DNA of 64,000 bases from IMG/VR virus record IMGVR_UViG_3300032116_000032, positions 32,001 to 96,000 of that record; one strand, written 5' to 3'. Both the position numbers and the translations under genes were made by a program. Shown piece after piece: positions 23,175 through 59,927 of this stretch (its first letter is position 1; the number at the start of each line of letters is the position of its first letter). Source of the DNA: a virus. Under the pieces are notes generated by a model. It was not told where the DNA came from, did not search any database, and saw only the letters and a program-made list of their open reading frames with translations.

Positions 23175-23204
23175 GTCTATATTTTATATAGTAACACAAA
23201 AATT

Positions 23205-24212: not shown

Positions 24213-24213
24213 T

Positions 24214-24777: not shown

Positions 24778-24798
24778 AAATCACTTAAAAAACAAAAA

Positions 24799-25809: not shown

Positions 25810-25818
25810 AAAAAACAA

Positions 25819-26268
25819 ATGAAAGAACAGGATATTACCAAAGTTGAATTTTTGTTAATGTGTAACGATAACATTGTGGTTCAGAGATTCTTTAATGTTA
25901 GAAACTTTAATAAAAATGCTCATAAATCTGAGGATTTTTATTATCACATTGAGAGTATTTGCAATGAGCTAAAATACGATCTTAAGATGAGATCAGTAAC
26001 CTACATGTTGGATAACCAATATGAAATTTCAGAAAATCCAGATGTACTAAACACATCAATTACCGATGGTCCGGAAAATTTTAATCTAATTATTAAGCTT
26101 GGAGATATGACAATTTGTCAGCGTGAGTTTGACGCGAAAGTATACCCCCCAAAGGTAAGATATACCGTAGACCTACGCCCAAAGTTAAAAAGCATCCTTT
26201 CCTCACTTACTGACATTTTTTCAGGTAAAAATTTTAATTATTTTTATCCTGAATTTATCAAAAACTAA
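25819..26268 (+). CDS. Hypothetical protein in the replication block
   Basis: Clean 149-aa ORF; no motif recognised. Confidence 0.75.
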   Translation: MKEQDITKVEFLLMCNDNIVVQRFFNVRNFNKNAHKSEDFYYHIESICNELKYDLKMRSVTYMLDNQYEISENPDVLNTSITDGPENFNLIIKLGDMTICQREFDAKVYPPKVRYTVDLRPKLKSILSSLTDIFSGKNFNYFYPEFIKN

Positions 26269-26271
26269 TAC

Positions 26272-26279
26272 TATTTATT
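26272..26279 (+). promoter_or_regulatory. TATTTATT motif upstream of helicase
   Basis: Motif 23 nt upstream of ATG 26303; an exception to the structural-gene pattern. Confidence 0.3.
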
Positions 26280-26302
26280 TTTACTAAAGGAGAGAAAACT
26301 AT

Positions 26303-27685: not shown

Positions 27686-27707
27686 CAAAATAAGTAAATT
27701 TATAAAA

Positions 27708-28655
27708 ATGGAAAAAATACTAGTAGAAAATCCTGGTCGGTTTGTCATCTTCCCTATCGAACACAATGATATATGGGAATTTTACAAACAACACCAAGCA
27801 GCGTTTTGGACGGCAGAAGAGGTGGATTTAACTAATGACATCAGAGATTGGGAAAATTTAACAGACAATGAAAAATACTTTATCAAAAACGTATTGTCAT
27901 TTTTCGCGGCTTCTGACGGTATTGTAAACGAAAACTTGGCGGAAAATTTTTACCGAGAAGTGCAATATCCCGAAGCTAAATTCTTTTACGGATTCCAATT
28001 GGCGATGGAGAACATTCACTCATTAATGTATTCGTTGTTGATCGATACGTACATTAATAACCCAAAGGAGAAAGATGAATGTTTCAATGCAATTGATAGA
28101 CTACCCGCGGTTCAGAAGAAAGCCAAATGGGCTTTGGAATGGATTGAAAAGGCATCTTTTGCAGAAAGATTAGTTGCGTTTGCTGCTGTCGAAGGTATCT
28201 TTTTCTCAGGTTCATTCTGTTCTATTTTTTGGATGAAATCAAGAGGGATTATGCAAGGTTTGTGTAACGCTAACTCATTAATCTTTAAAGATGAAAATTT
28301 ACATTGTGATTTTGCAATTCACTTATTAAATAACCATTTAGAAAATAAACCTTCCGAAAAAAGAATTAAAGAGATTTTACTTTCGGCATTAGAAATTGAA
28401 AAGGAATTCATAACAGAATCACTTCCTGTTTCTTTAATTGGAATGAACTCAAACTTAATGAAACAATATCTTGAATTTGTAGTTGATGGATTACTCGTTA
28501 AGATGGGATGTAGTAAAGAATTCAACGTAGAACAACCGTTTAAGTTTATGGAGCAAATTGCTGTTGAAACTAAAGGTAACTTCTTTGAATCAAGAACTAT
28601 GGAGTATCAGAAGGCAAAACTGAATGAAACCATAACATTTACAGACGACTTTTAA
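27708..28655 (+). CDS. nrdB: Ribonucleotide reductase class Ia small subunit (R2)
   Basis: [23 protein letters not shown] and DENLH di-iron ligands; C-terminal EYQKA. Confidence 0.96.
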
Positions 28656-28665
28656 TTTTTGGAAT

Positions 28666-31632: not shown

Positions 31633-33474
31633 ATGGCTGAAAAAAAGATATCCTATACGGTCCGAGATTTTCAAGGAGTAAGATCTGAGTTAATAAATTT
31701 CACAAGAACTTACTATCCTGATTTAGTTCAGAACTTTAATGATGCTGGGATTTTTTCAGTTATGTTGGATCTTAACGCCGCGGTAACTGATAACTTGAAT
31801 TATCAAATTGATAGAAGTATCCAAGAAACTGTATTACAATTTGCACAACAAAAGAATTCGGTTTATAATATTGCAAGAACTTATGGTCTTAAAGTACCTG
31901 GTCAAAGACCATCGGTTGCTTTAGTTGATTTCTCAATAACAGTTCCTGCTTTTGGTGATAGAGAAGACATAAGATATTGTGGAATCTTAAGAAGAGGATC
32001 TTTAGTTAATGGTGCTGGACAACCTTTTGAAACTGTCTATGACATTGATTTTGCATCACCAATTAATGCTGAAGGATCACCAAACAGATTAAAAATACCA
32101 AATTTTGATTCAAGTGGTAAATTGATAAATTACACCATTGTTAAAAGAGAAGTTGTTGTAAATGGAGTTACAAAAGTGTTCAAAAGAACAATTACCGCAA
32201 ATGATGTAAAACCATATTTAGAGTTATTTCTCCCTGAAAAAAATATATTAGGAATTACAAGTGTGTTGTTGAAACCAGGAACACAATATTCAACAGTACC
32301 AAATCCGCAAGATTTTTTAAGTTTGGGGCCTGAAAGATGGTTTGAGGTTGATGCATTAGTTCAAGATAGAGTTTTTGTTGAAGACCCAACTAAAGTTTCA
32401 GATCAACCAGGTATTAAAGTTGGAAGATACATCACAACCTCTAATAAATTTATTTCTGAATACACACCACAAGGTTTCTGTAAAATGACTTTTGGTGGTG
32501 GTAACATTTCGGCCGAAGAACAACTAAGAGAATTCGCTAGAGATGGTAAAGGATTTGATTTAAGTAGATATACTAACAATTACGCTATGGGTGCGGCTTT
32601 AACACCAAATACAACACTATTCGTTCAATACAGAATTGGGGGTGGATTAGCTAGTAATGTAGGTCTAAATACAATCAATCAAATTGGTACAGTTTCATTC
32701 GCAGTTAATGGACCTTCTGATTCTGTAAATAGAAGTGTTATTAATAGTCTTCAGTGTAATAACGTAACTGCCGCAATTGGTGGTGCTAATTTACCAACAA
32801 CAGAAGATGTTAGAAATATGGTTTCATTTAACTTCGCAGCTCAGAACAGAGCAGTAACTGTTAATGATTATAATTCATTAATAAGAACAATGCCGTCACA
32901 ATATGGCGCACCAGCAAAAGTTGCAATCACTGAAGAAAATAATAAAATTAGAATCAAAATGTTGTCATACGACACTAATGGTAGTTTATCTAATGTTGTT
33001 TCAAATACTTTAAAACAAAACATCGCAAATTATTTATCTAACTTCAGAATGATCAATGATTATATTTCCGTTGAAGCGGCAGAAACAATTGATTTGGCTG
33101 TTACTGTTGATGTTGTATTAGATAATAGTCAAAACCAAGGTGCAATTATTTCAAAAACAATTGAAATTGTTAGTAACTTCTTTAATCCATTAGTTATACA
33201 GTTAGGTCAAAATGTAAACATATCTGAACTTAGAAGACTAATACAAGCAGAAAACGGTATAGTTAGTATTTCTGACATTTCATTCTTTAATCAAGTTGGA
33301 GGTCAATACTCTTCGGCACAAACATCTATGCCTTATTCGGATCCTGTAACAAGACAAATACAACCAACGGCAGATACTTTGTTTGCAACTCCAACACAAA
33401 TCTATCAAATTCGATTCCCAAACAAAGATATTAATGTAAGAGTATTGAACTTGAAATCCGTTAATTTCTCATAG
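31633..33474 (+). CDS. Baseplate wedge protein (T4 gp6 / baseplate J-like)
   Basis: RDFQGVRSELINF..., AQQKNSVYNIARTYG, FAAQNRAVTVNDY. Confidence 0.88.
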   Translation: MAEKKISYTVRDFQGVRSELINFTRTYYPDLVQNFNDAGIFSVMLDLNAAVTDNLNYQIDRSIQETVLQFAQQKNSVYNIARTYGLKVPGQRPSVALVDFSITVPAFGDREDIRYCGILRRGSLVNGAGQPFETVYDIDFASPINAEGSPNRLKIPNFDSSGKLINYTIVKREVVVNGVTKVFKRTITANDVKPYLELFLPEKNILGITSVLLKPGTQYSTVPNPQDFLSLGPERWFEVDALVQDRVFVEDPTKVSDQPGIKVGRYITTSNKFISEYTPQGFCKMTFGGGNISAEEQLREFARDGKGFDLSRYTNNYAMGAALTPNTTLFVQYRIGGGLASNVGLNTINQIGTVSFAVNGPSDSVNRSVINSLQCNNVTAAIGGANLPTTEDVRNMVSFNFAAQNRAVTVNDYNSLIRTMPSQYGAPAKVAITEENNKIRIKMLSYDTNGSLSNVVSNTLKQNIANYLSNFRMINDYISVEAAETIDLAVTVDVVLDNSQNQGAIISKTIEIVSNFFNPLVIQLGQNVNISELRRLIQAENGIVSISDISFFNQVGGQYSSAQTSMPYSDPVTRQIQPTADTLFATPTQIYQIRFPNKDINVRVLNLKSVNFS

Positions 33475-43835: not shown

Positions 43836-46822
43836 TGGCCACACAGAAGTTTACTTGTCCACCTCAAAGTAGTGCCGCCAATGAATTCTCAAATAATTTG
43901 GTTGGAGTTCAGTTAGTCACTGGAGGAGGGTTAACGCAAGCAAATTTTAACTTCACAACAAACATATCCGAAAAACAGAATAGAACGTTTAATATTGGTA
44001 CGTTTTCAGATCCAATAAATCTTGAGAGTATAAATATTGATAATAATATTGAAGCCGCTGAGATTTTAGCTAACAACTATAGAGTTTACCCAAATTATGA
44101 TTTATCTCAAGTAACAAACTTTACCCAATATGGTTCTTTAGTAAAAAGATTTTCAGTTTCAATAACTAAGATAATCAACTTTTATCCTGCAGGATTAGAG
44201 GTTTCACCAAATACAAATAAGTTTATAACTCAAGAAACGGCATTTAATATAACTTACGATGCGGTAGAGGACGACACAACTTTCGAAGTTTCAGTATCAT
44301 CTATTAGAAATCCATTTGACATAGATTACACCGTTAATGCTGAAACTAATATGTTGTTTAATGAGATGGAAGTTTCACCTCTGAGGAATATGAAATTGGA
44401 GTATAAAAAATACGCCTTAGTTGTCAACGGCAATGAATATCCTGTAAATTATTTGTACCCTACGACAAGTAATTCATCTACATTAAAATTAATTGTTGAT
44501 GGAAACCCATTCAACGGGAATTCAATATCTTACGATTATATTGTTATAAGACCAAATAACTATGAAGTTAATAAAGTATTTAATCTGAAGTTTGATCCTG
44601 TTGAGAATTTTTTATTAAATAGAAATATTAATCCTCCATATACCGCAACTTTTACAGTACCAAGAGAACAAGAAGATGGAACATTTAAGATAACAACAGA
44701 ACTTGCCACATTCCCAAAATCAGGACTTTGGAACTTAGATATTGAATCACAAACATTTGATAACTACCTAACACAAATTAACGATTTTGCAATAAATCTT
44801 GATTCATATAACACGAATTTAGTTTCAAGATTTTTAACGACAGGTGCTCTGAAAGAGTTTGATACACCTGATCATAAATTTGAAAAACTTTTACAGATTT
44901 ATGGTAGAAGTTTTGACGAAACTAAAGCATTCATTTCGGCGTTAGGTAATATTAATAGTGTTCACTATACTGTTAAAAATGATATACCGTCACAACTTTT
45001 GAAAAATTTGGCACAAACATTAGGTTGGGTAACAAACTTTTCACCTATATCGAATGAAGAATTGTTACAGGCAGTTTTTACAACACAACCAAATACTTTT
45101 CCTGGTTTACAAATAGGACCAACGCCTGAGGAAATTAATTATCAATTTTACAGAAACTTAATTATAAATTCTGCGTGGTTATTTAAATCAAAAGGAACAA
45201 GAAAATCTATTGAGTGTCTCTTGAGGATGGTTGGAGCTCCTGAGGCTTTAATTGATTTTAACGAACACATTTATGTTGCTGATCAAAGAATTAACATGAG
45301 TGAGTTTAATAAACAGTACTTACAATTATCGGGAGGAACTTTCCTACAAGAATATCCTGTATTAGAAACTAACAACACATACTCAATACAAGGTATTCAG
45401 TACACTGGTTTTACAACAACATTTGCAAATGCAACAGTTTTAACTACAAGAGAAGATTATCCTGTTGATGAATTTGGATGTCCTAAAATGCCAACACCAA
45501 CGGAGGAATACTTTTTTCAAATTGGAGGAGGATGGTTCGAATCAACACCTCAACACAGGATGCCAGAATTTGTAATCCCAACAAATCAAGTATTCATAGG
45601 CGATAATCCTAATTTCCAAACTCAACTTTTACCTTTCAACTATGGAGAGGAATATCTACAACTGTACAGACATTTCCCATATATGAATTTGGGGTATAAG
45701 ATTAGAAAAGTCCAAGATAATAAGAAAAGTTGGAGTGATACCTCACCAACACAACGAGTAAGTTCAGATGGTGGATTTAATGCTTATTATGAAGTCGGTG
45801 AAGAATGTTTAACATTGAATGTAAAAAATGTTGACATTATGATGAATCCCGCACAAGGTTTGGTTTATGATGTTTGGACAATGTCTAGACAATATAATTA
45901 CCCAATACCTGAACAAGGTTTATTCTACACTCCTGACACACCTTGTAGTGTACCAAATCCTTACCCAAGATATGGTGGAATAGATTGGACAACAATTATC
46001 CCAAAACCAAAACAAAAAACTTTCTTTGAATTTGCTCAAACATTTTGGAGAAATATGGTTAACACTAGAAACCGACAATTTATTACCGATGGTAAAACTG
46101 GAGGTTACCCAACACTACAATCAATATATTGGAAATACTTAGAATCTCAGACACAAGCAGGAATACCAAATGATAATTTTACATACCAAACTATGATAGA
46201 TTATATTAATGGTATGGGTGACTATTGGATTAGAATGGTTGAACAAATGGTCCCTGCAACTACAATATGGAACACAGGAGTTAGATTAGAAAATTCAATA
46301 TTTCATAGACAAAAATTTGTATGGAGAAGACAAGAAGGCTGTAAAATCGTTCCTGTTCCTTGTAAACCTTGTTCTTTGGCAACACAATTATTTGTATACG
46401 ATTGCCCTGTACAACAAGTGGTTTGTGGACTTTATCCTTGGAATAGTGACCCTACAATAACATCTATGGGTGCAGTCTTGAATGATACTTTAGATACTTT
46501 TTATAGCCAAAATTCATTAAACCCAACCGATTGTTTACAGAATTCAATTGTAACAACTTGGAATGTAGATTTGAGGGTAAATGGATTTGTATTGGTAATA
46601 TCACCTTTCTACACAGGTATTGGACCATTCAATATCCCAACTAATTCAGAATGGGTTGACGCTTTGAGTAGTACATTAAATAATTTACTAACCTCAGGGT
46701 ATAGTTATAATATTGATGAGGATAACGAACAAATAACAGTCTTTAACAATAATTGTCAACCTAATTTTGATGACTTTCAAATAAACATAGGACTTGAGTT
46801 CGAAATATATTGTAACGAATAA
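43835..46822 (+). CDS. Baseplate wedge protein (P2 gpI / T4 gp7-like core)
   Basis: LLKNLAQTLGW...INSAWLFKSKGTRKSIECLLRMVG resembles the gpI/gp7 core motif. Confidence 0.6.
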   Translation: MATQKFTCPPQSSAANEFSNNLVGVQLVTGGGLTQANFNFTTNISEKQNRTFNIGTFSDPINLESINIDNNIEAAEILANNYRVYPNYDLSQVTNFTQYGSLVKRFSVSITKIINFYPAGLEVSPNTNKFITQETAFNITYDAVEDDTTFEVSVSSIRNPFDIDYTVNAETNMLFNEMEVSPLRNMKLEYKKYALVVNGNEYPVNYLYPTTSNSSTLKLIVDGNPFNGNSISYDYIVIRPNNYEVNKVFNLKFDPVENFLLNRNINPPYTATFTVPREQEDGTFKITTELATFPKSGLWNLDIESQTFDNYLTQINDFAINLDSYNTNLVSRFLTTGALKEFDTPDHKFEKLLQIYGRSFDETKAFISALGNINSVHYTVKNDIPSQLLKNLAQTLGWVTNFSPISNEELLQAVFTTQPNTFPGLQIGPTPEEINYQFYRNLIINSAWLFKSKGTRKSIECLLRMVGAPEALIDFNEHIYVADQRINMSEFNKQYLQLSGGTFLQEYPVLETNNTYSIQGIQYTGFTTTFANATVLTTREDYPVDEFGCPKMPTPTEEYFFQIGGGWFESTPQHRMPEFVIPTNQVFIGDNPNFQTQLLPFNYGEEYLQLYRHFPYMNLGYKIRKVQDNKKSWSDTSPTQRVSSDGGFNAYYEVGEECLTLNVKNVDIMMNPAQGLVYDVWTMSRQYNYPIPEQGLFYTPDTPCSVPNPYPRYGGIDWTTIIPKPKQKTFFEFAQTFWRNMVNTRNRQFITDGKTGGYPTLQSIYWKYLESQTQAGIPNDNFTYQTMIDYINGMGDYWIRMVEQMVPATTIWNTGVRLENSIFHRQKFVWRRQEGCKIVPVPCKPCSLATQLFVYDCPVQQVVCGLYPWNSDPTITSMGAVLNDTLDTFYSQNSLNPTDCLQNSIVTTWNVDLRVNGFVLVISPFYTGIGPFNIPTNSEWVDALSSTLNNLLTSGYSYNIDEDNEQITVFNNNCQPNFDDFQINIGLEFEIYCNE

Positions 46823-49020
46823 TGAGTATTTTAATTTATAATTATAGTGTAACGGGGGATTGTAGTAATACAGGTAGCGGTGCGGTTTCGTTTGATATAA
46901 CTGGAAGTACACCAACAGTATCTCCTTTTAGTATTTCAGATGCAACAGGTCAAGGATTATTACCACTTTCTGCAGCAACAAATACATACTCAGTAACTGG
47001 CCTTACAGGAGGCACATATTATGCTCAACTTACAGATTCTAGTACAGAAAAAGAAGTTTTAAACATTTATATTTCAACAGGCACTACAGCAACTATTGAT
47101 TCGTCCAATACCACTTGTGGACAGAATAATGGAACCATAACAGGTTTCACGTCTGGCGTCTATGGACTTGTTTCTTTTAATTTATATGATATAAGTAATA
47201 ATTTAATTTCAGGTGTAACAACATCTAATTCTTATTATGAATTCACATCTCTTTCGGCCGGTACATATTACATTGTTGCAAACGATGGTGGTGGATGTAC
47301 AGGAATAACCGCATCTGTAATATTAAATCCTTCATCAGGTTTAACATATGGTGCATATGTTGTTGATGATGCTAGTTGTTTAGGTTCAGGTAGTGGTAAA
47401 ATTTTCTTAACAGGGTTAACACCACCATTGTCGGCATACACAATAACTTGGAGTCCTAACGCTTTAGGGCAAACAGGATCAACAATAACAGGACTAACAT
47501 CTGGATCTTATGTTGCTACTGTTACTAATTCAGTAGGATGTACGTTAAGTCAGTCATTTACTGTAAACACTATTCCGCCATTAACATCAGGTGGTTTTAT
47601 TGTGGTATCACAACCTTCTTGTTTTGCCAATGATGGTGAAGTGGAGTTTATTGTTGTTGGTGGTACTGCACCATATTTTTTTAGTGGATCATCAGGTCAA
47701 GTTGAAATAACATTTGATACTTCCGTAACTTTTACGGGACTATCTTCAGGATTATACTCATTTTTTGTGACAGATTCAGGTTTATGTACAATTTATGATT
47801 CTGTAAGTTTAATAACACCAAACTCTTTTAGTACTGTTGCAGTAACAACAACTAACTCAACTTGTTCTGTAAATGATGGTAGTATTAATGTTTTAGTTGA
47901 TGGAGGACTTAGTACTGCAACCAACTTACAAATTTCGGTATCTGGAACAACAGGTATAAGTCAAATAGGATTGTTTGGTAGTTCTAATGAAACATTTAAT
48001 GGTCTCGGAAGTGGAACATATATAGTAACAGTTGTATCTGCAGGTTGTACCTATACCGCATCAACAGTAATAAATTCTGTTAGTTTATATAGTGCAACTA
48101 CTGAAGTAACCGGAACTACATGTGGATTGAATAATGGGATTCTTGTTGTAAGTGCGTCAACAGGAGGAACTTTCCCATACACATATTCATTAACAGGACC
48201 AAGTTACAACCCAAACACTACTACAAGCCAGTTCAACACGTTTACTAATTTAGCTAACGGAAATTACGTGTTAACAATACAAGATACCTCATCACCACCT
48301 TGTATACAAACATATGCGGTTAATATACCATATAGTCAAAGTGTAAACTTTAATCTATATCCAAACCAACCTGTAAATGGTAATGACGGATCTATAACTG
48401 CGTTTATCACAAGTGGTGAACCACCTTTCACTTTAACTTGGAGTGGAGGAACTATAGGACTTCAAACAGGAAGTACTGTTACAGGTCTTACTTCAGGTCC
48501 TTACAGTCTAACTGTAACTGATGCTAGTGGTTGTACACTAACAAAATACGCAACATTAACAGGTACTAAAAAATACACTAATTATTTATACTATAATGTT
48601 TGTGATAATACATTTACAGATAGTGGGTTAGTAACTAAAAGAACTATACGAGCAATGTATTTAGAAGGGTTCAATGACTTAACTAGTGGTGATACAAACT
48701 GTATTATAAATTCTGCAACTTTTACGATTGGTGCTGAAGTTGGTGGACAATCAGCAGAAACTATATTTTATACATCTTCTGGTTCTACAGATTACCCAAA
48801 TGATATACTATGGGCAGACGCAATATCGACAATACTTAACGACTTTGTTGGAATATCAGATGTTACTATAGACCTACCTTCAAATAGAATTATCATAAAA
48901 ACAAACTGCGAAGAAATCACTAAAAACTGTGGTCCACAAACAATAAATCCATTACAAGATACTGAAATAAAAGTCAACTTATTGATTGACTATGACATAT
49001 CTTGTGTAAGTTGTAGTTAA
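46822..49020 (+). CDS. SprB-repeat (Ig-like) virion protein
   Basis: Multiple units of the type xxCxxxDGxIxVxVxGGTxPYxYxW...LxxGxYxxTVTDxxGC, e.g. NDGSITAFITSGEPPFTLTWSGG...GLTSGPYSLTVTDASGC. Confidence 0.8.
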   Translation: MSILIYNYSVTGDCSNTGSGAVSFDITGSTPTVSPFSISDATGQGLLPLSAATNTYSVTGLTGGTYYAQLTDSSTEKEVLNIYISTGTTATIDSSNTTCGQNNGTITGFTSGVYGLVSFNLYDISNNLISGVTTSNSYYEFTSLSAGTYYIVANDGGGCTGITASVILNPSSGLTYGAYVVDDASCLGSGSGKIFLTGLTPPLSAYTITWSPNALGQTGSTITGLTSGSYVATVTNSVGCTLSQSFTVNTIPPLTSGGFIVVSQPSCFANDGEVEFIVVGGTAPYFFSGSSGQVEITFDTSVTFTGLSSGLYSFFVTDSGLCTIYDSVSLITPNSFSTVAVTTTNSTCSVNDGSINVLVDGGLSTATNLQISVSGTTGISQIGLFGSSNETFNGLGSGTYIVTVVSAGCTYTASTVINSVSLYSATTEVTGTTCGLNNGILVVSASTGGTFPYTYSLTGPSYNPNTTTSQFNTFTNLANGNYVLTIQDTSSPPCIQTYAVNIPYSQSVNFNLYPNQPVNGNDGSITAFITSGEPPFTLTWSGGTIGLQTGSTVTGLTSGPYSLTVTDASGCTLTKYATLTGTKKYTNYLYYNVCDNTFTDSGLVTKRTIRAMYLEGFNDLTSGDTNCIINSATFTIGAEVGGQSAETIFYTSSGSTDYPNDILWADAISTILNDFVGISDVTIDLPSNRIIIKTNCEEITKNCGPQTINPLQDTEIKVNLLIDYDISCVSCS

Positions 49021-49338: not shown

Positions 49339-52290
49339 ATGGCATTATTAACGGATCAAATACAAGCTACTGGAGTTTCTCTAACAGACTTAATTCACAT
49401 AGTAATAACTGGTGATACTTCTCAAAATCCTGCGGGATCATCTTTTAAAGCATCAATTTCTCAACTTGTTAGTTTAATTAGTGGTTCTACAGGAACAAAC
49501 GGTACATCAGGAACTAATGGAAGTAGTGGTACAAATGGAACTAACGGTACATCAGGAACTAATGGGTCTAGCGGTACTAATGGGTCTAGCGGTACTAATG
49601 GAACAAACGGTACTTCAGGAACAAATGGATCTAGCGGTACTAATGGAACAAACGGTACTTCAGGAACAAATGGATCTAGCGGTACTAATGGAACAAACGG
49701 TACTTCAGGAACAAATGGATCTAGCGGTACTAATGGAACAAACGGTACTTCAGGAACAAATGGATCTAGCGGTACAAATGGAACAAATGGATCTAGCGGT
49801 ACAAATGGAACTAATGGTACAAGCGGTCTAAGTGGTATTGGGTTATTTTTACCATTATCAGGGGGCACGGTTACGGGTAATACAATATTTAATGCCGGTT
49901 TAAGTGCGATAACAATATCGGCAACAACCTATCAAAACTTACCAAGTGATGTGATAATTATTGACTCAACACAGATTCAATCAGGATTTACAGGTGGAGT
50001 CTTGTTCCAAAGTTCAGCAAGTACGGTAAGTCAAACTACTGGATTTACTTGGGATAATGTAAATAAAAGGTTGGGAATTGGGACTAACACCCCTCTCTAT
50101 GACTTAGACGTTTATGGGTCTATCTATCAAAAAACCGGAGAATTATTAATTACATCCACAAGTGGTGTTAATAAAGAAGGTCCATTTATAGCATCAGACG
50201 GCGGAACTAACAGAACCATTCAATTAGGAATTTCAGACAATTCAACTGTACCTGTCGGCATTGATATGTTTGTAACTAACAATACATTCCCGCCAAGTTA
50301 CATGAACTTTAGAGTAAACGATGCTGATCTAGTTAGGATGTCTGGTAGTTCTGTTATAATTAGCGGTCTTACATATACAAGTGGTATAACCTCTACATCT
50401 AAAATAACATTTCCACAGCTGACAATTAATAGTTCATACACCATGACTGATAATGATTTTATGATTGATGTTACAGGAGGAACATTCAACGTACAATTAC
50501 TATCTGCCGTAGGAAGACAAGGAAGAATAGTTGTTATTAAAAATAATGGTGGAGGTGCAGTTACGGTAGTCCCTTATGGTAGTGAAACTATAGATCTAGC
50601 ACCATTTGTTATTTTAGGTGAAACAAACTCATTACAATTAGTAAGTAATGGTAGTTTTTGGGTTGCAATGTCTTATAATATCTCAACAGTAAACTCATCA
50701 ACAGGTGTTTTTGAATTTAGTGGTTTGACAAAGGCAAGTAATACCACATTTAATGTTGCCCCTGTTAAAGGTTGGATAGTTGATGATACAACTAATCCGT
50801 TGAGTCCCCAACTTTTATTTGTTTATTTTACTGGAGGAACGTATACTGATAGTTTTGTAACAACGGCTTTTGAGACATTTGTTTATTTAACAAGTGGTGC
50901 AACAATTGGACAACAATCAACACCACTAACTGAACAACAAAGAAGACAAAATATATTTTTAGGTAAAATAGGACACCCTGAAAAAGTTTCAATTAACTTA
51001 GTGTTTTCACAACCTGATTTTGTTTTATCACCATTATCTCAACTTCGTGATATGTTTGTACCTATTAATTTAATTAATGGGGGTGTATATCCATCAGCCA
51101 ACGGAGCAAACTTAAAATTCAACACAAGTGCCGGGTTTATATATGGATTAGGTATTAATTTTGCATCGAATACATTGAACCCAAATGCATTATCGATATC
51201 AGGAACAAGCCCTTGTACATTCCAATATAGAACACAAACAGGAGGAACGGTTACAAATGTTACAGATATTGACCCACTTAACTATGATGTTGGGGGTGTT
51301 ATAACTCCAATCACAGGTACTAAAGCCACAAACCAAAGAATTTACCTATTGCAAAATGGACAATTTAGAATTCAATATGGTCAAACCGAATATAACACTT
51401 TAGTACAGGCGATAGAAGCATTACAAACAGAAACATTCACAATATTCCCCAATTTTGTAAATAATGCCGTTCTTATTGGTATATTAACGGTGTTAAGTAC
51501 CGCAACGGATTTGACCGATACAACTAAAGCAAGATTCTTTTTTGCGTCTAAGTTTGGTGAAACTGTAGGTGCTACGGGGGGTGTGTCAACAACAAACCTA
51601 CAACAAGCTTATAATAACTCAGTACAACCTGAAATAACAACCAACTCAACTTTAGGTGCGTTCTCAATCAAAAATGGTACGGGTAATCCTGATGCCACCA
51701 CAAATTTATTTGAAGGAATTAATTCTGCAAATACTTTAACATCGGTAATCACTGCAAGAGGTACTATCACAGGGTCTAGTATTACTACAAATGGTGCTGT
51801 GACGGGAGCTACCGTAATTGGTGATGTTATATCGGGTAACACAGTGTCGGCCTCAACACTTAACCTTGCAGGATCACAAATAAATACTGCTTGGACATCT
51901 TATGTACCTGTTTTGACCGCAAGTGTAACTAATCCTGTAATTGGTAATGGAACCGTAGAAGGTTGGTATAAAATAGTTGGTAAAACATGTTTTGTGAGAG
52001 GAAATATTGTAATGGGATCAACAACAACATTTGGTGCAGGAGAATGGTATGTGTCAGTACCATTTACCGCGGCTCATGCTGATGCAATATTATTAAATGC
52101 TGACATATTAGATAATGGGACCGCTTGGTATAATGCATTTATAGCGGGTGCAAGAGCAGGATTTAATACCAAAGCGGCAATACAATATCAAAATACAGGA
52201 GGAACTACAGATAGTGTTTCACCAAGTACCCCATTTACTTGGACAACTGGTGATAGATTTTTATGGAATGGAAGTTATGAAATCGCATAG
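49339..52290 (+). CDS. Tail fibre / receptor-binding protein with collagen-like stalk
   Basis: 40 Gly-X-Y triplets, LPLSGGTVTG neck, RLGIGTNTP repeat motif, and a C-terminal WTSYVPVL...GWYKIVGKTCFVRG receptor-binding-type domain. Confidence 0.8.
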   Translation: MALLTDQIQATGVSLTDLIHIVITGDTSQNPAGSSFKASISQLVSLISGSTGTNGTSGTNGSSGTNGTNGTSGTNGSSGTNGSSGTNGTNGTSGTNGSSGTNGTNGTSGTNGSSGTNGTNGTSGTNGSSGTNGTNGTSGTNGSSGTNGTNGSSGTNGTNGTSGLSGIGLFLPLSGGTVTGNTIFNAGLSAITISATTYQNLPSDVIIIDSTQIQSGFTGGVLFQSSASTVSQTTGFTWDNVNKRLGIGTNTPLYDLDVYGSIYQKTGELLITSTSGVNKEGPFIASDGGTNRTIQLGISDNSTVPVGIDMFVTNNTFPPSYMNFRVNDADLVRMSGSSVIISGLTYTSGITSTSKITFPQLTINSSYTMTDNDFMIDVTGGTFNVQLLSAVGRQGRIVVIKNNGGGAVTVVPYGSETIDLAPFVILGETNSLQLVSNGSFWVAMSYNISTVNSSTGVFEFSGLTKASNTTFNVAPVKGWIVDDTTNPLSPQLLFVYFTGGTYTDSFVTTAFETFVYLTSGATIGQQSTPLTEQQRRQNIFLGKIGHPEKVSINLVFSQPDFVLSPLSQLRDMFVPINLINGGVYPSANGANLKFNTSAGFIYGLGINFASNTLNPNALSISGTSPCTFQYRTQTGGTVTNVTDIDPLNYDVGGVITPITGTKATNQRIYLLQNGQFRIQYGQTEYNTLVQAIEALQTETFTIFPNFVNNAVLIGILTVLSTATDLTDTTKARFFFASKFGETVGATGGVSTTNLQQAYNNSVQPEITTNSTLGAFSIKNGTGNPDATTNLFEGINSANTLTSVITARGTITGSSITTNGAVTGATVIGDVISGNTVSASTLNLAGSQINTAWTSYVPVLTASVTNPVIGNGTVEGWYKIVGKTCFVRGNIVMGSTTTFGAGEWYVSVPFTAAHADAILLNADILDNGTAWYNAFIAGARAGFNTKAAIQYQNTGGTTDSVSPSTPFTWTTGDRFLWNGSYEIA
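49591..49770 (+). repeat. Four exact tandem copies of a 45-bp unit (GTNGTNGTSGTNGSS) within the Gly-X-Y region 49483-49842
   Basis: ggtactaatggaacaaacggtacttcaggaacaaatggatctagc at 49591, 49636, 49681 and 49726. Confidence 0.95.
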
Positions 52291-52344: not shown

Positions 52345-53325
52345 ATGGAAAATATGTTATTTGTTTCAGCACAACCCGATGTCCCCTACTTTATATGGCA
52401 AATAAAATTGTATGTTCATAATTTTATTGAAAAAGGAATCAACCCAAATCAAATACATGTTGTTTTAGGGTTAGTCAATAATGTAAACACACCATCTAAA
52501 GAATCAGAACAACTTAAAGAGTTAGGGGTTAATGTGCATTACTTTGTTGATCAAAGATCTAAAAAACATTATATACCAAGTATTAAACCATACCTCATCT
52601 CAAAGTGGATACAGTCAAATCCTGATTATGGAAAATTATTTTTCCTTCATGATGCTGACATTATTTTTAAAGAATTACCGAGTTTTGATCGGTTGTTAAA
52701 AGATGAGGTTAGTTATTTATCTGATACAATAGGATACATTGGATATAACTATATTATGGATTGTTGTGAAAGATATGAACAACAACACCCCAATTCAGAT
52801 AAAGGACAACTTATAAGTGAAATGGCAGATGTAATTGGTGTTGACGTTGAGACAATCAAAATTAATCAAGAAAATTCTGGTGGAGGACAATACCTAATCA
52901 AAAATACAAATTGTGAGTTATGGGATAAAATCTATAGAGACTCAACTACTATGTATGACAAGATGTTGGATTATCAAAAAAGATTCCCGATAAATCCAGG
53001 TCAAATACAATTTTGGACTGCTGAGATGTGGTCATTATTATGGAATTTATGGTTGTATAATATTGAAACTAAAGTTACAGAAGATCTTGATTTTTCTTGG
53101 GCAACGGATACCATAGAAACTTATGAAAAAAAACCAATACTTCATATGGCTGGTGTGACTGATAACCTAAGAGCTACAAAATTCTACAAAGGTGATTACA
53201 TTAATATAAACCCAATTTCTAAGTTGAGAGAAAACCCTAATCATTTTGATTACATAGATAAAGATAGTTCGACAATAAAATATATCGATAATATGAAATC
53301 TTATATTCAAAAATACAACATATGA
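52345..53325 (+). CDS. GT-A glycosyltransferase resembling peptidyl-serine alpha-galactosyltransferase / Hyp-O-arabinosyltransferase (GT96/GT95-like)
   Basis: Motifs in order: LFVS..DVPYFIWQ, HYIPSIKPYLISKW, FFLHDADIIF (DxD), GYIGY, SGGGQYLI, FWTAEMWS, ILHMAG. These parallel YFDWQ / YPAINKP / ILDADM / GG / WISEMY of plant SERGT1 as recalled, not searched. Confidence 0.75.
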   Translation: MENMLFVSAQPDVPYFIWQIKLYVHNFIEKGINPNQIHVVLGLVNNVNTPSKESEQLKELGVNVHYFVDQRSKKHYIPSIKPYLISKWIQSNPDYGKLFFLHDADIIFKELPSFDRLLKDEVSYLSDTIGYIGYNYIMDCCERYEQQHPNSDKGQLISEMADVIGVDVETIKINQENSGGGQYLIKNTNCELWDKIYRDSTTMYDKMLDYQKRFPINPGQIQFWTAEMWSLLWNLWLYNIETKVTEDLDFSWATDTIETYEKKPILHMAGVTDNLRATKFYKGDYININPISKLRENPNHFDYIDKDSSTIKYIDNMKSYIQKYNI

Positions 53326-53342: not shown

Positions 53343-55421
53343 ATGGTAGAAAATTGTTATATATTATATTCTTGCGACGGAAGTTACGAACCGATCATTT
53401 CAAACTTTAGTGGGTTGAGCGCTTATTCGGCATCATACATCTCTGTAAATTCGATAGATTCAGTAACAATAGAGGAGACTTGTTTTTATGTGTTAAGTTT
53501 AGGTGTGATAGACTGTACCATAACAAACGAAATAACAATTTCAACAGGGATAACATGCAATTGTCAATGTTATTGTTATTTTATAAGATCTGTGGTTCAA
53601 ACAACTGATGTTACATATGTTAATTGTAATGATGAAATTATTGTCGATACTATCCAAGAAGGATTAACTTATAATATTTGTAGTAAAGTTTATCCACAGT
53701 TTGATAATCAAGTACAAATCCCAATTAAATTAACTGACATTTGTGTTGATAACCAATGTCCACCAACAATCCCAACTGTAAAACCAACAAACGAATGTGA
53801 TGTTATTACTATATTCCCTATGGGAGTTACTTGTATAACACAACAACCTTCATCAGAAAGAAATTTTGACGGGGCGGTTGAATTAGTTGTAACAGGAGGA
53901 ACGCCACCTTATACTATATTTTGGGAAGTTGGAAGTTTTGCGCCAGCACTTACTAATCTTGGTGTTGGAGAATACTCAGCATCTGTTACGGATTATTATG
54001 GTGATTTCTCAGCATTTACAACTTGTGTTTTAACTGCTGAAACTATAAATTATTCAGGTATGTGTTTTGTATTAACAGGTGTAGTAGAGGATCAGTTAGT
54101 ATACATTAATTCAGAAGTAAAAGGGTTTAAAAATACCAAACCATACTTTGAAATACAATATGGTGTAAATCTTTTGGGTTACGTTTTTTGGGACCCAAGT
54201 TCGTCGAATAAATGGTTTTTTTGTCAAACATTAGATTGTCAATTATCACCATATAATACACTTATATTACCTGATGGATTATATCCTACAGGAACAACAG
54301 GTGATTGGCAAGTTGTTTCAGACACACCGTATTTAATTGTTGAATCAACAATTGGTAATTGTTCGCCACCAACAATACCTAAAGAACAGTTTCCTCTTTG
54401 TGCAACAATAGTTTTAAGATCGACAAAACCTGGTTCTGCAACAATCACATCACAGGTCCAACTTGACCCAAGTGTCGAAATAAATGGAGAACCTAGTTGG
54501 TCATCATCAACAGATCAATATGTTGTATATTGGAATAGCGGATCAACACCTGCTCAGTGGGTTATGACAGGGTTTACTAACCCATCAACATTGGTTTCAA
54601 ATAATGATCCTTCATATCCGCCTGTAAGTAATTGGCAGGTTTATGGTTCACCTGAAGTTTATAGTGTTGATATTACACAAGGTGAATGTTCAGAATCATA
54701 CATTGTATTAGCGTCTGCAATTGTAAATGATGCTCTATGTGGAGACAATGGTAATATTACCGTAAGTGCTTCGGGAGGAGATGCACCATATCAATATTCA
54801 ATAGACGGAGGAATATCATATCAACCATCACCAATATTTAGTAATGTTTTACCAGGAACTTACAGTGTATTTGTAAAAGACGTAAACACAACAATAGGTT
54901 CGTTTGGACCAGTGGTAGTTAATAACATACCAACCACCATTTATAATGTAACAATGAATGTAAATTACAATAATAATACTTTTACGTTAACCGCACCATC
55001 GTTACCTGTTGGAGCTACCTTAACAGTGGACGTGGTTATGTCATCAGTATTCAATTATTACCCACAAAGTTTAAGTCCAATACCTACATATAATAATTTT
55101 ACAACTATTAATGGTGTAGGTCTTATGACAAACATTAATACGACAGCTAATACATATCCTTTAGGTGGACCTTGTAGTGTTCCTGGACCATTGAATAATA
55201 CTCAAATTAGTAATACGTATTTAAACACAATAACATTAACAAGCGGTCAAGTTGTTACAGGTAGTACTACAAATAGTATTATTAATGCTCCTGTTACATC
55301 TTGCTCAAATGCTTTAGGGTATTATACACTATCCATAGCTAATGCAATGATAAACAACTGTCAATGTTGTGATGCGAATCTAATTAATACGGTTCCACCA
55401 GCACCACAATCAGTTTTATAA
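53343..55421 (+). CDS. Cys-rich virion protein with SprB repeats
   Basis: DGAVELVVTGGTPPYTIFW...LGVGEYSASVTD and CGDNGNITVSASGGDAPYQYSIDGG..YQ.SPIFSNVLPGTYSVFVKD. Confidence 0.75.
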   Translation: MVENCYILYSCDGSYEPIISNFSGLSAYSASYISVNSIDSVTIEETCFYVLSLGVIDCTITNEITISTGITCNCQCYCYFIRSVVQTTDVTYVNCNDEIIVDTIQEGLTYNICSKVYPQFDNQVQIPIKLTDICVDNQCPPTIPTVKPTNECDVITIFPMGVTCITQQPSSERNFDGAVELVVTGGTPPYTIFWEVGSFAPALTNLGVGEYSASVTDYYGDFSAFTTCVLTAETINYSGMCFVLTGVVEDQLVYINSEVKGFKNTKPYFEIQYGVNLLGYVFWDPSSSNKWFFCQTLDCQLSPYNTLILPDGLYPTGTTGDWQVVSDTPYLIVESTIGNCSPPTIPKEQFPLCATIVLRSTKPGSATITSQVQLDPSVEINGEPSWSSSTDQYVVYWNSGSTPAQWVMTGFTNPSTLVSNNDPSYPPVSNWQVYGSPEVYSVDITQGECSESYIVLASAIVNDALCGDNGNITVSASGGDAPYQYSIDGGISYQPSPIFSNVLPGTYSVFVKDVNTTIGSFGPVVVNNIPTTIYNVTMNVNYNNNTFTLTAPSLPVGATLTVDVVMSSVFNYYPQSLSPIPTYNNFTTINGVGLMTNINTTANTYPLGGPCSVPGPLNNTQISNTYLNTITLTSGQVVTGSTTNSIINAPVTSCSNALGYYTLSIANAMINNCQCCDANLINTVPPAPQSVL

Positions 55422-55447: not shown

Positions 55448-57952
55448 ATGGCTTACATAATTAAAAATACATCTGGTTTAGTTAACACTCGTGTAACGGA
55501 TACAGGTAGACAAAAAATGTCTGAAGGTAATTTTAATATCTTGTACTTTGCAGTAGGGGATAGTGAAGTTTCATACAATGAATTACCATCAACATACAAT
55601 CAGGCTAATACTGTTGTATTAGAGCCACAGTTCAATGCGCAGAATAGTTCAGGTGTTCCTGAGTCAAATAGACAGTACATCAAATATCCATATTTAGTTG
55701 ATGAGGGACAAACAAACATATATGGTATTCCTTTTATGGATTCAGGTATTGAATCTGTTTATAATAGAGCAGCCATGAGAGGATTTTTCACAGGAAATAC
55801 AACAGCGTCTACTATAGATTGGAAAGCATTAGTTAACAACACATATGTTATCACACCAAATTATGTAGTTAATATGTCTACGTTGAACGGAACAAATCAA
55901 ATAAGTGTACAAAGAATGGACTGTAACGTTCAAAATAATAATACACCTAATGTTGGAGATTTTATAACAATATATTACGATGGAAGGGCAGAAACTGATT
56001 GTTCTTGTACTAATTTCCCTACACCAACACCTACACCTTCATTGTATAGTACACCAACACCTACACCAACACCAACAGGTACAAATTCAATACCATGTGC
56101 TTCACCAACACCAACACCTTCACCAACGCATACACCATGTTTAACACCAACACCAAGTGCTCAATGTCCCGTACCACCACCACCTGATTGTTTGAAAGAT
56201 GTGGTAAGTTGTTTTTCAATTTTAACTTATAGAATTGTTGAAGTTTGTGGTGATGTTTTAACGTTAGATAGAGAGACACCTGATTTTACAAATTTATCTA
56301 TTGATTGTTGGGCGAGAACATTAATTTATCCACCACAGATGGTTCCTTTGTATGATAGTTTTACACCTGAACCACATTGGAGTAAAAGTGTGATTGACTT
56401 CGAATCGGTTTGTGATACTGATCAGTTTGATGTTAAAATATGGAATATGAACATTCCTTGGACTGAGAGTCCTGCTGGTTTAGCGTCGGCTCAATTTCAA
56501 GACTATACAAAATTTGGTTCTATTAATTATATAGGACAAAAAGAATATTTTGGATACACTTCATCTGATGGTCAAACATCTACGGACGATGTGTATTACT
56601 ACAATTCTTTTGGTGAAAAAATTGTAGTTACACCTGAAGAACAAAAAACTATAGCAATTATACACTATACTAACCAAACCATTGATTTCTTCTATGGTGA
56701 AAAATTTGCATTAGAACCATACGACACTCAAAACCCTGAGAACACCCAAGGTCAAGCAAGAAATTTCAAGTTACATATGCCAACAATAATGTGGCATAAA
56801 AATCCTGAATGTTGTTTTGGACAAACGTTTTGGGTTGATCCTCCTGGATTTGACAATCAAAATTTATTTCAAGTTCAATATACTAAATCTAAGATTTCAC
56901 AACAAATGAATCAACCTGGACTTAGGTATTATAATCTTTGGGATACATTTGCACAACCTAATGGTCAACCAAGTAGAGTAGGTAAAGTTTACCCCGATTC
57001 AAAACTAATTGTTATTGACGACGAAGAATTGGTGGCCGCTCTATCATATAAATCAAATAGAAACTGGACATTACCGGCACCACAAGTGTCTTTAATAACA
57101 CCAAACACGTGTGGAACTTCAAATACTACAGGTGTTTTGACAGGAGGAGGAGAAACACTTTGGGTGACTTATAGATTATCAAATTCAAACACATTTACAA
57201 ATTCATTACATAGTAATTACTACACAAGTGTCGTTGGAACTGAAAATGTCTGTTCACCTGAAACACCAAAGAATGTTGCAATTAGATTTGGTGGAGATTT
57301 CCCATGTTTAGTACAACCTGGATTCTCACCAACAACTACAACCACAACATTTAATCCTGTAACCACATCAACAACTACAATTAATCCACCATATACAACA
57401 ACTACAACAACTCAGTGTCCTGTATGTACTGTTCCTGCTGGATTCTACGCACAACAGTTCCAAGTATTGGCTCAAAAAACATTATCGGGAGTAAGACCTG
57501 ATCCGGCACAATGGAGGTTAATTGATTTTACAAGTCAAATTGAACAATACTTCATTAATGGTTATGTAACGCAAGAATCTTTAACTGCAACTACTTTTGT
57601 TGTGACTGCAGAAAATTATGGAAGTGCACCTATATACAATCTAAACAATTACATAAGTTTAGTTCCTAATGGTGCTACAGGACAACAATTAAATTTTGGT
57701 GATGAATACTATTTCTACGGTAATTTAGAAACCGACATTCAAGCAACATTGTATGAGATGAAATATAAAATTAACTTAAGTGATAATGAATTCTTACTCT
57801 CTCAAAACCCAACTTGGACCCAAGGAACACCATCTTATGTTACAGAAATCGCTCTTTTAGATGAAAATAAAGATGTTTTAGTTATGTCTAAAATGCAATC
57901 ACCTATCTTAAGACAAGGAATTCAACAGTACGTTATCAAATTAGATTTCTAA
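55448..57952 (+). CDS. Tail-collar/fibre-attachment protein (DUF3751-like termini) with Pro-Thr and Thr-run insertions
   Basis: N-terminal TDTGRQKMSEGNFNILYFAVGDSEV and C-terminal VTEIALLDENKDVLVMSKMQSPI resemble fibre-attachment domains. Confidence 0.65.
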   Translation: MAYIIKNTSGLVNTRVTDTGRQKMSEGNFNILYFAVGDSEVSYNELPSTYNQANTVVLEPQFNAQNSSGVPESNRQYIKYPYLVDEGQTNIYGIPFMDSGIESVYNRAAMRGFFTGNTTASTIDWKALVNNTYVITPNYVVNMSTLNGTNQISVQRMDCNVQNNNTPNVGDFITIYYDGRAETDCSCTNFPTPTPTPSLYSTPTPTPTPTGTNSIPCASPTPTPSPTHTPCLTPTPSAQCPVPPPPDCLKDVVSCFSILTYRIVEVCGDVLTLDRETPDFTNLSIDCWARTLIYPPQMVPLYDSFTPEPHWSKSVIDFESVCDTDQFDVKIWNMNIPWTESPAGLASAQFQDYTKFGSINYIGQKEYFGYTSSDGQTSTDDVYYYNSFGEKIVVTPEEQKTIAIIHYTNQTIDFFYGEKFALEPYDTQNPENTQGQARNFKLHMPTIMWHKNPECCFGQTFWVDPPGFDNQNLFQVQYTKSKISQQMNQPGLRYYNLWDTFAQPNGQPSRVGKVYPDSKLIVIDDEELVAALSYKSNRNWTLPAPQVSLITPNTCGTSNTTGVLTGGGETLWVTYRLSNSNTFTNSLHSNYYTSVVGTENVCSPETPKNVAIRFGGDFPCLVQPGFSPTTTTTTFNPVTTSTTTINPPYTTTTTTQCPVCTVPAGFYAQQFQVLAQKTLSGVRPDPAQWRLIDFTSQIEQYFINGYVTQESLTATTFVVTAENYGSAPIYNLNNYISLVPNGATGQQLNFGDEYYFYGNLETDIQATLYEMKYKINLSDNEFLLSQNPTWTQGTPSYVTEIALLDENKDVLVMSKMQSPILRQGIQQYVIKLDF

Positions 57953-58673: not shown

Positions 58674-59927
58674 TTAACAAATTGCGCCTGTATCTGTAGC
58701 GGTAAAGTTAGGTGAAGTTGACGTTGGAATTGTAATTGAACAAACGTAAACGGATGTATAACCGTTTAATCCACCTGTAGATACTGTTCCATCACACTCG
58801 TAGTAGTCATATTTAACAAAACTTGGACTATTATTCTCAACGTACCATCTTGTAAGGATACAAGGAGGTAAAGTTGTAGTTGTGGTTGTAGTACTTGTTG
58901 ATGTTGTGGTCGTAGTTGGTTGTATATTAGAAAAACAAGCTAAACAAGAACCATCAACTCTTGAACCTATTTCAGTTAATAATACAACTGTGTCAACCCC
59001 ACTTATGTTTTCAAACAAACCTTCAAATGTAACACAAGTTTGTTGACCGTTAATTTCTGCAAAATATACGTAATTTTCTAAAGGAGTATTTCCTGAAATT
59101 AAAACTAAATCTGAAGTATAATAATCTACACCATTGAAACAATCACTAAATCTTTTACTATTAGCACATTGAATTACTTCAGTAAACGTATTGAATATAA
59201 CTTCGCCTGAAAAATTACAAGGATAGTTAATAGTTGTTGTGGTAGTCGTTGTTGGTGCTATTGTGGTTGTAGTTGTGGTATATGTGACCGCAATAGCCGT
59301 AATTGACTTTCCACTACAAGGATTAGGAAGTACTGTTGTCGTAGTAGTCGTTGTGGGGGCTGCTGTAGTTGTTGTAGTTGTTGTAGGAACTAAACAATCA
59401 AAAATGGCGCTAAAATCAAATGTAGCACATGGATCCACAGTTGTGGTTGTTGTTACACAAATTCCGGTATACGCTACCGTGTCGTCAAAATCAGGACAAT
59501 CTGATGTGCTTCCAAAAGGACCAAACTGATCACATGGGTCACCTAAGTTTTGTGCTAAACACCATCTTGTTTCACCTGTTGAATAAAACATGAAATATCC
59601 GGTGGTTTGACCTGTAAAATAAGATTCACCATCGTAAATTCCTGCTAACTGATAAGTGTCATCATAATTAGTGTCGTTTTCAACACAAAAAAACTGAGGA
59701 CAAGTACAACCTGAACTACCAATAATTGTACCTGAACCATCTATATCATATACATCTATACCATCTGAATAGTATGATAGTAATGCTGGACTACTACATA
59801 TTGAGTCTAAATAAACAATGTCACCTACAGTTAAACCACTACCATAAAGAGTAAAACTCAAAGTAGATCCACAGGAACTGTTAGGGTCTGAGGCGGATGA
59901 AAATAAACCTAAATTATTACAAGACAT
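58674..59927 (-). CDS. Cys-rich, mucin-like (Thr-run) putative virion decoration/fibre protein
   Basis: Several runs of 5-7 Thr, mostly inside Cys-bounded segments; co-transcribed with a gene carrying the late motif. Confidence 0.7.
   Translation of the reverse strand: MSCNNLGLFSSASDPNSSCGSTLSFTLYGSGLTVGDIVYLDSICSSPALLSYYSDGIDVYDIDGSGTIIGSSGCTCPQFFCVENDTNYDDTYQLAGIYDGESYFTGQTTGYFMFYSTGETRWCLAQNLGDPCDQFGPFGSTSDCPDFDDTVAYTGICVTTTTTVDPCATFDFSAIFDCLVPTTTTTTTAAPTTTTTTTVLPNPCSGKSITAIAVTYTTTTTTIAPTTTTTTTINYPCNFSGEVIFNTFTEVIQCANSKRFSDCFNGVDYYTSDLVLISGNTPLENYVYFAEINGQQTCVTFEGLFENISGVDTVVLLTEIGSRVDGSCLACFSNIQPTTTTTSTSTTTTTTTLPPCILTRWYVENNSPSFVKYDYYECDGTVSTGGLNGYTSVYVCSITIPTSTSPNFTATDTGAIC

Follow-up and report, generated by a model that had tools for sequence, protein, structure and literature searches.

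Why a phage would keep a gene for a sugar-transferring enzyme in the middle of its baseplate and fibre genes is the question raised by the 64,000-nucleotide stretch of viral DNA analysed here (the window, from IMG/VR record IMGVR_UViG_3300032116_000032), which corresponds to positions 27238-91237 of a 106,888-bp IMG/VR virus record. CheckV estimates the completeness of this record at 36%, which implies a jumbo phage of ~300 kb, and the same gene is present in complete relatives of 275-318 kb. The gene product, referred to below as P0001, belongs to the family phrog_4417 and is very probably a glycosyltransferase (GT). Judging from the comparison of genes and sequences across phages, it is probably an initiating O-glycosyltransferase that acts on Thr tracts of the phage's own particle proteins. 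The gene and the codons of its presumed active site are located as follows.

52345..53325, + strand: intact open reading frame (ORF) of P0001 (326 aa, phrog_4417, soluble GT-A fold)
52651..52659, + strand: DxD-motif codons (D103-A-D105), for a site presumed to bind the metal and the nucleotide-sugar, judged by its conservation and its position after strand 98-101
53143..53145, + strand: codon of His267, possibly the third metal ligand known from GT8-type enzymes

P0001 matches phrog_4417 over its full length (E 1.8e-67, residues 4-319 against positions 1-290 of the 293-position PHROGs profile). The family is annotated as having no known function; it comprises 839 clusters at 50% identity and 2,402 clusters at 90% identity (the latter in the near-length range), and the best 120 of these 2,402 relatives in a profile search are all labelled 'hypothetical' and carry no Pfam domain. 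Its membership is overwhelmingly viral, and the clusters nearest to P0001 in a language-model atlas are mostly viral as well. Sequence searches of Pfam, NCBIfam and the PDB returned nothing usable either with P0001 or with a 56-sequence profile, and P0001 has no Pfam match at E <= 10. The AlphaFold2 (AF2) model of P0001, built from the alignment, has a predicted local distance difference test score (pLDDT) of 97.3 and a predicted template modelling score (pTM) of 0.94 and displays a Rossmann-like GT-A fold with the DxD motif placed after a hydrophobic β-strand. The best fold matches span the whole model and are retaining enzymes of the GT8/GT24 group, in which Foldseek concurs. The matches (scores in brackets) are glycogenin (15.7), the Skp1 α-galactosyltransferase of Dictyostelium (6mw8; 14.6), LgtC (14.4), the catalytic domain of UGGT (14.1), the C-terminal part of WbbM (chain residues 280-571; 14.1), GlyE of the pneumococcal serine-rich-repeat protein pathway (13.7) and LARGE1 (13.0), and RmlT is also found among the structural matches. 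The best match is thus neither a non-GT fold nor a GT that modifies DNA, outcomes that the earlier note on this DNA had named as fatal to its proposal of a protein O-glycosyltransferase; the matches are protein- and glycan-directed retaining GT-A enzymes. The best fold matches of P0001 are GT8 enzymes, and its conserved DxD and H267 may correspond to the DxD plus C-terminal His metal site of that family. Its sequence identity to the GT8/GT24 structural neighbours is 6-12%, and Glyco_transf_8 (PF01501) matches neither P0001 nor appears among the families listed for 152 relatives. Because there is no Glyco_transf_8 match and no PDB sequence match even by profile, phrog_4417 is not a sequence member of GT8.

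The catalytic-type residues are in place. Five motifs to which the earlier note had drawn attention are all present and in the order given there, namely YFIWQ (residues 15-19), YIPSIKP (76-82), LHDADII (100-106), GGGQY (179-183) and WTAEMW (224-229), and they coincide with invariant or near-invariant columns of the 56-sequence family alignment, which are W18, Q19, Y76, D103, D105, G179, G180, Q182, W224, M228, W229, H267, G270 and K282. Conservation was scored in three alignments (A1, with the 56 sequences, A2 and A4; 239 aligned relatives in all) and in 80 orthologues of the same lineage. Fifteen tallied positions, including all of the columns listed except Q19, are unaltered in 79-80 of the 80 orthologues. 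In A1, D105 never varies and D103 is at least 90% conserved; A2 and A4 show no variation at either position, and both residues are found in 80/80 orthologues. In the AF2 model the DxD follows directly after strand 98-101, as it does in GT-A enzymes. Q182 and K282, like the DxD, are invariant across the 239 aligned relatives and the 80 orthologues. His267, whose role as a metal ligand would be by analogy with GT8-type enzymes, does not vary in A1 and A4, is near-invariant in A2 and is kept in 80/80 orthologues. With 80 orthologues that are all intact and conserved, the possibility that the gene is a pseudogene or a chance ORF was dropped. P0001 lacks a hydrophobic segment (the maximum 19-residue Kyte-Doolittle mean is 0.78), and anchoring in a membrane or secretion of the enzyme was rejected for this reason; the model opens with a core β-strand already at residue 5.

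The identification as a GT rests on the GT-A fold, the invariant DxD and, additionally, on gene fusions to other glycan-building domains. Longer relatives join the phrog_4417 domain to a GT60-type GlcNAc transferase, a protein O-fucosyltransferase, GT6, GT2, GT7C, GT25, GT1 and GT32, and further partners are FkbM methyltransferase, radical-SAM/SPASM and F5/8-type C domains. A 65%-identical relative of 1,915 aa combines the domain with GT1, FkbM and GT2. Neither a DNA enzyme nor a structural protein was found among the fusion partners, and in 13 of 20 fusions the phrog_4417 domain stands at the N-terminus. Such partners are the ones expected of an enzyme with a part in glycan building, possibly as the first step. 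In several relatives (P0394, P0396-P0398; 658-660 aa) the GT domain is fused to radical-SAM/SPASM, a domain type that usually modifies peptides, and this fusion might be a hint that the same acceptor is modified a second time.

Further evidence on the acceptor comes from distant phages, several of which are isolates with cultivable hosts. The GT homologue lies directly after the major tail protein gene in phiFL1A (Enterococcus), phiCTP1 (Clostridium) and PT94 (Staphylococcus) and directly after the major head protein gene in Lacticaseibacillus phage R3.3, and in Chryseobacterium phage MA9V-3 it follows a gene for a protein with an S/T tract. The preceding protein bears a poly-Thr tract in all five phages, at the C-terminus in the four Bacillota ones. 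Such a layout, with the GT directly after structural proteins that carry a dedicated poly-Thr extension, corresponds to that of the mycobacteriophage type of virion glycosylation. In PT94 (L086:3793-4932) the major tail gene is apparently split by an HNH homing-endonuclease gene, and its C-terminal part, which contains a T14 run, stands just before the GT homologue.

Profiling of the GT against Thr-run content, which the earlier note had suggested, revealed co-occurrence with poly-Thr tails among loci that are related to one another. The searches were seeded with tail-tube proteins stripped of their tails, and therefore the tails could not bias the selection of loci. When two protein families are combined, the enzyme occurs together with a C-terminal poly-Thr tail in 38 loci, 33 contain neither, 1 has the tail only and 0 have the enzyme only. 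In the Enterococcus/Lactobacillus major-tail family (60 assessable loci), the enzyme and a tail of at least five Thr occur together in 33 loci, both are missing from 26, 1 locus has a tail without the enzyme and 0 have the enzyme without a tail; on the tree of the tail-less core, the enzyme must have changed at least 7 times and the tail at least 6 times. In the clostridial tail-tube family, 5 loci have both and 7 have neither, and the tail-less proteins stop exactly where the tail starts in the tailed ones. Over both sets, runs of five or more Thr (T>=5) occur in 72/717 ORFs of loci with the enzyme and in 1/600 ORFs of enzyme-free loci, and 95% of these runs fall in the last tenth of the protein. 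Because the loci are related, the raw co-occurrence table overstates the evidence; when we read the two trees ourselves, 6 contrasts are concordant and 0 opposite.

Where a poly-Thr tail is missing from the tail and head proteins of Lactobacillus-type phages, the C-terminus is often formed by an Ig-like (Big_2-type) domain, for example ...TITATSGSLTATATGTITAE, as is seen in major tail or head proteins of loci L126, L135, L138, L142-L144, L148, L160, L161 and L163. In the head protein of L142 the poly-Thr end was exchanged, together with the GT gene, for an Ig-like domain. From these sequences, the poly-Thr tail and the Ig-like domain look like interchangeable decorations.

In the lineage of the jumbo phage itself, the context was assessed in 80 IMG/VR relatives whose GT is 59-98% identical to P0001. 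The GT gene is found in the same fibre module in all 80 and is better conserved than the surrounding fibre genes, whose identity drops to 26%. The collagen-like gene that precedes it in the window is detected in only 30 of the 80 relatives; the GT and the Thr-tract genes are retained. The module and the proteins that bear on the choice of acceptor are listed below.

31633..33474, + strand: baseplate wedge subunit (phrog_219, E 3.5e-18), the start of the baseplate/fibre module that holds the GT gene
46822..49020, + strand: SprB-repeat protein of the same fibre module (Pfam SprB, E 2e-13)
49339..52290, + strand: collagen-like tail fibre built of G-S/T-x triplets, a possible acceptor whose gene directly precedes the GT gene (Pfam Collagen, E 3.2e-16; tail-fibre PHROGs)
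53343..55421, + strand: SprB-repeat fibre-like protein directly downstream of the GT gene (Pfam SprB, E 5.3e-12)
55448..57952, + strand: P0272, 834 aa, the best candidate acceptor here; residues 190-240 hold a (PT)n tract, and T6 runs lie within 628-655
58674..59927, - strand: P0273, 417 aa, a Cys-rich putative virion protein with 19% Thr and seven T5-T7 runs, a candidate acceptor
573-3923: ORF with (PT)3

With the baseplate wedge gene at 31633 and fibre genes around it, the GT gene does lie inside a baseplate/fibre module, and its position between a collagen-like fibre and an SprB gene, which the earlier note had proposed, is borne out by the Pfam Collagen match upstream and the SprB repeats downstream. 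The repeat of the collagen-like fibre, GSTGTNGTSGTNGSS..., begins at residue 49 of the protein. The Thr and Pro-Thr tracts that the note had reported are real, and they are rare, being found in 6 of the 94 ORFs of the 107-kb record; the virion status of the main tract proteins is that of candidates. In P0272 the tracts are kept in 69/71 orthologues and in the consensus of 33 orthologues; the AF2 model of this protein is poor (mean pLDDT 55.7), with the tracts in segments of pLDDT <50 between better-folded β-rich parts. The Thr runs of P0273 are kept in 57/57 orthologues (31-72% identity), and in three rearranged relatives the orthologue of P0273 directly follows the GT gene. The Thr5-7 linkers of P0273 separate short Cys-containing modules, the gene is on the strand opposite to the whole fibre module, and no family match was found for the protein. 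The downstream SprB-repeat protein (53343-55421) has no Thr/PT tract in this copy, and a tract is present in 53 of 77 orthologues from the relatives. The SprB-repeat protein at 46822-49020 is syntenic in 72/80 relatives, and 35 of these 72 orthologues carry Thr/PT tracts. Two small ORFs with Thr/PT tracts also occur at genome positions 13876-14571 and 16655-17506.

Taken with the fold, these comparisons suggest the following scheme. A soluble, cytoplasmic, metal-dependent (DxD) GT-A enzyme would take a nucleotide-sugar from the host and transfer the first sugar, probably with retained anomeric configuration as in its GT8/GT24-like structural neighbours, to the hydroxyls of Thr (or Ser) in the Thr runs and Pro-Thr tracts of fibre and baseplate proteins that the phage itself encodes. 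P0272 and P0273 would be the first candidates for such acceptors, and the collagen-like fibre may be another. The transfer would take place before or during virion assembly, and other glycosyltransferases encoded in the genome may then lengthen the sugar. Upstream of the window (genome positions 2762-9639) the record encodes a 979-aa GT1+GT9 (heptosyltransferase-like) protein and a 324-aa GT9 protein, from which it follows that the glycan may be extended in this phage. The earlier note had proposed a glycan coat on tail, baseplate and fibres; the comparative evidence points to Thr-rich virion proteins as the acceptor. The fold, the conserved catalytic-type residues, the fusions, the kept place in the fibre module and the co-occurrence with poly-Thr tracts are observations, and the acceptor, the initiating role, the retained configuration, the donor sugar and any benefit to the particle, be it shielding, stability or adhesion, are inferred.

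Several observations weigh against this scheme. Both genes that flank the GT gene here lack a Thr run, the nearest tract proteins being encoded by the second gene downstream and by the fourth, on the opposite strand. The tracts in this phage are internal linkers and not C-terminal tails, P0272 and P0273 are by their sequences only putative virion proteins, and Pro-Thr and Thr linkers also exist unglycosylated. Among the distant phages, locus L142 has a tail and no enzyme, and in a conservative count restricted to well-supported branches 3 contrasts are concordant and 1 is a tie (sign test p 0.25). Finally, the gene content leaves DNA modification possible in this lineage because a complete 318-kb relative has a thymidylate-synthase-family gene.

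The enzyme might be directed to proteins or glycans without being the initiator on Thr tracts in this phage: it could extend the glycan of another enzyme, such as the upstream GT9/GT1 proteins, or act on Ser/Thr of the adjacent collagen-like fibre. The presence of the 979-aa GT1+GT9 fusion and the 324-aa GT9 protein in the same record, the fusion of the 65%-identical relative to GT1, FkbM and GT2, and the fact that the genes adjoining the GT encode a G-S/T-x collagen-like fibre and an SprB-repeat protein, neither with a Thr run, are all consistent with this. We nevertheless consider it unlikely. No GT2, GT1 or thymidylate-synthase-type gene is found in 12 small genomes that carry the enzyme and have a completeness of at least 94% (the positive controls worked), so that among the GT2, GT1 and phrog_4417 families the phrog_4417 protein is the sole GT found in these near-complete phages. 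This gene content fits an initiating, protein-directed enzyme and argues both against a purely chain-extending role and against DNA-base glycosylation as the function of the family. The phrog_4417 domain also comes first in most fusions, and the collagen-like gene is found in only 30/80 relatives whereas the GT and the Thr-tract genes persist. Glycosylation of hypermodified DNA bases (e.g., hydroxymethyl pyrimidines) as a protection against restriction is common for phage glycosyltransferases (PMC12619734), and the thymidylate-synthase-family gene of the 318-kb relative could be taken to indicate it. This gene, however, gives a match of 290 bits, as strong as is expected of a true thymidylate synthase, lies ~100 kb from the GT gene and is, by its sequence, probably a normal ThyA, while neither the 107 kb of this phage nor the 12 near-complete small carriers contain a thymidylate-synthase-like or hydroxymethylase-type gene. 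Since, moreover, every fusion partner is a glycan enzyme and the gene is located in a structural module and co-varies with poly-Thr tails, DNA-base glycosylation appears highly improbable.

It is also conceivable that the enzyme modifies an envelope polymer of the host (teichoic acid, lipopolysaccharide or capsule) during infection or lysogeny, with a block to superinfection or a change of serotype as the outcome. The prophage-encoded GT-A enzyme TarP alters Staphylococcus aureus in that manner, this soluble GT-A enzyme is encoded in many temperate Bacillota phages, several carriers are classed as proviruses, and LgtC, WbbM and RmlT are among the structural matches of P0001. Yet the gene is part of the operon for virion morphogenesis, where it directly follows the gene of the major tail or head protein, and not of lysogeny or moron regions, its presence tracks poly-Thr tails on tail and head proteins, and it is also found in lytic-type jumbo phages, within the fibre module; a role in altering the host surface is therefore quite improbable in our view. 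A Stealth-like hexose-1-phosphate transferase, which would place a sugar-phosphate onto Ser/Thr or a polymer, is suggested by weak Pfam matches to Stealth_CR2 in 6/96 relatives (best E 0.018) and in 1/56, but all these matches are below threshold and none is to P0001, and we give this alternative very little weight. Initiation of O-glycosylation on Thr tracts of particle proteins is the reading that we prefer.

The earlier note had gone further and assigned the enzyme to a plant/algal, eukaryote-like GT96/GT95 type, and this label is not established: the HPAT family PF23452 misses P0001, there is no membrane anchor, the family is overwhelmingly viral and the nearest solved folds are those of GT8/GT24. 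At the cut-off of 23.9 bits, PF23452 has no match in the whole record, nor does it match P0001 at E <= 10. It was not matched either in 40 carrier records (5 isolated phages and 35 from IMG/VR), a search that says little because the control genomes did not match. Weak matches to PF23452 were seen in 4 of 152 relatives (2/56, best E 0.09; 2/96, best E 3e-4), and HPAT is the only glycosyltransferase Pfam family that any of the 152 touches at E <0.01. Of the 30 nearest named language-model atlas clusters, 19 carry HPAT on part of their members, which can be taken as a lead only. A search for relatives among proteins longer than 650 aa found 17, all of them phage-type fusions and none a plant protein, which is weak evidence. 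GT95 and GT96 are related to each other (PMC8012813); GT95 is predicted to be GT-A-like, and for GT96 a novel fold is predicted (PMC8476585). A remote kinship of phrog_4417 with GT95/GT96 is plausible, membership in these families is not supported, and the description 'plant-type GT95/96' enzyme is unproven.

The motif TATTTAT occurs 10-16 nt before the starts of both neighbouring genes (at 49324 and 53327) and is missing from the 54-nt spacer before the GT gene, in agreement with the earlier note, which had described this gene as lacking the late motif. Window-wide, TATTTAT is not enriched (36 matches against 41 expected), and by our own count 11 + strand copies lie no more than 40 nt upstream of ORF starts, where ~0.5 would be expected. 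Examples on the + strand are the following.

3980, 6410, 8310, 26272, 31154, 33528, 42904, 49324 and 53327, + strand: TATTTAT sites

From this distribution, TATTTAT looks like a real promoter-like or initiation-region motif common to many genes, and it may not be specific to late genes because replication genes also have it. A replication and nucleotide-metabolism block is situated between large structural genes and the baseplate wedge gene (31633).

22258-31095: block encoding SSB, a UvsX-like recombinase, an exonuclease, a DnaB-like helicase and both ribonucleotide reductase subunits

To our knowledge, the only demonstrated cases of virion glycosylation by such virus-encoded enzymes are so far those of some actinobacteriophages and of giant viruses. 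In the literature searched, we found no paper on this family, on GT95/GT96 in phages or on glycans of poly-Thr tail or capsid proteins. As proposed, the system would be new in its enzyme family, in the homopolymeric Thr/Pro-Thr nature of its acceptors, in the other host phyla concerned and in its far wider distribution. It is possible, and we advance this tentatively as a view that falls somewhat short of an even chance, that phrog_4417 and poly-Thr/Pro-Thr tags together constitute a widespread, undescribed 'mucin-type' O-glycosylation of virions in Bacillota, Bacteroidota and aquatic jumbo phages, in which the tag is portable and can be swapped with Ig-like domains and the enzyme is an ancient relative of GT95/GT96. 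If the family acts as the comparisons suggest, O-linked sugars attached to simple poly-Thr tags would cover the capsids, tails or fibres of thousands of phages, among them those that infect Enterococcus, Lactobacillus, Staphylococcus and Clostridium and also abundant jumbo phages of aquatic habitats. This would bear on the recognition of therapeutic phages by antibodies, on the adherence of phages to mucus, on the stability of their particles and on the annotation of a family with >2,400 clusters at 90% identity that is labelled 'hypothetical'.

Among known systems, the retaining transferases of GT8/GT24 share their fold with P0001, whose sequence lies outside GT8. The plant and algal GT95 enzymes and SGT1 (peptidyl-serine α-galactosyltransferase, GT96) are, like the proposed phage enzyme, peptide-directed initiators on Pro-, Ser- or Hyp-rich repetitive proteins; however, the plant HPATs are hydroxyproline O-arabinosyltransferases of the Golgi that use L-arabinofuranose and have a type II membrane anchor, whereas the phage enzyme has no anchor and its proposed acceptor is Thr, not Hyp or Ser. 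BclA of the Bacillus anthracis exosporium, which is O-glycosylated at Thr in collagen-like (GPT)n repeats, is a Thr-rich collagen-like filament bearing O-linked oligosaccharides and in this respect resembles the G-S/T-x fibre encoded upstream of the GT gene, although the organism and the enzymes differ and the phage fibre is only a possible acceptor. A further known system is that of the mycobacteriophages, whose enzymes place glycans at the C-terminal ends of capsid and tail-tube subunits (Freeman et al. 2023, summarised in PMC12619734 and PMC13313380). PMC12619734, the moraphage paper, concerns a different lineage of large Bacteroidota phages and does not mention phrog_4417. In mycobacteriophages the glycosyltransferases are proposed to decorate C-terminal extensions of capsid and tail-tube subunits, and at the very same places the Bacillota phages considered here carry poly-Thr tails. 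Mycobacteriophage glycosylation was shown experimentally, while the present case is read from genes and sequences alone. It further differs from the mycobacteriophages in the hosts, which are those of a Bacteroidota-type aquatic jumbo phage and of Bacillota phages, in relying on an unannotated enzyme family, and in its proposed acceptors, which would be homopolymeric Thr and Pro-Thr tracts that in this phage take the form of internal linkers within fibre-module proteins.

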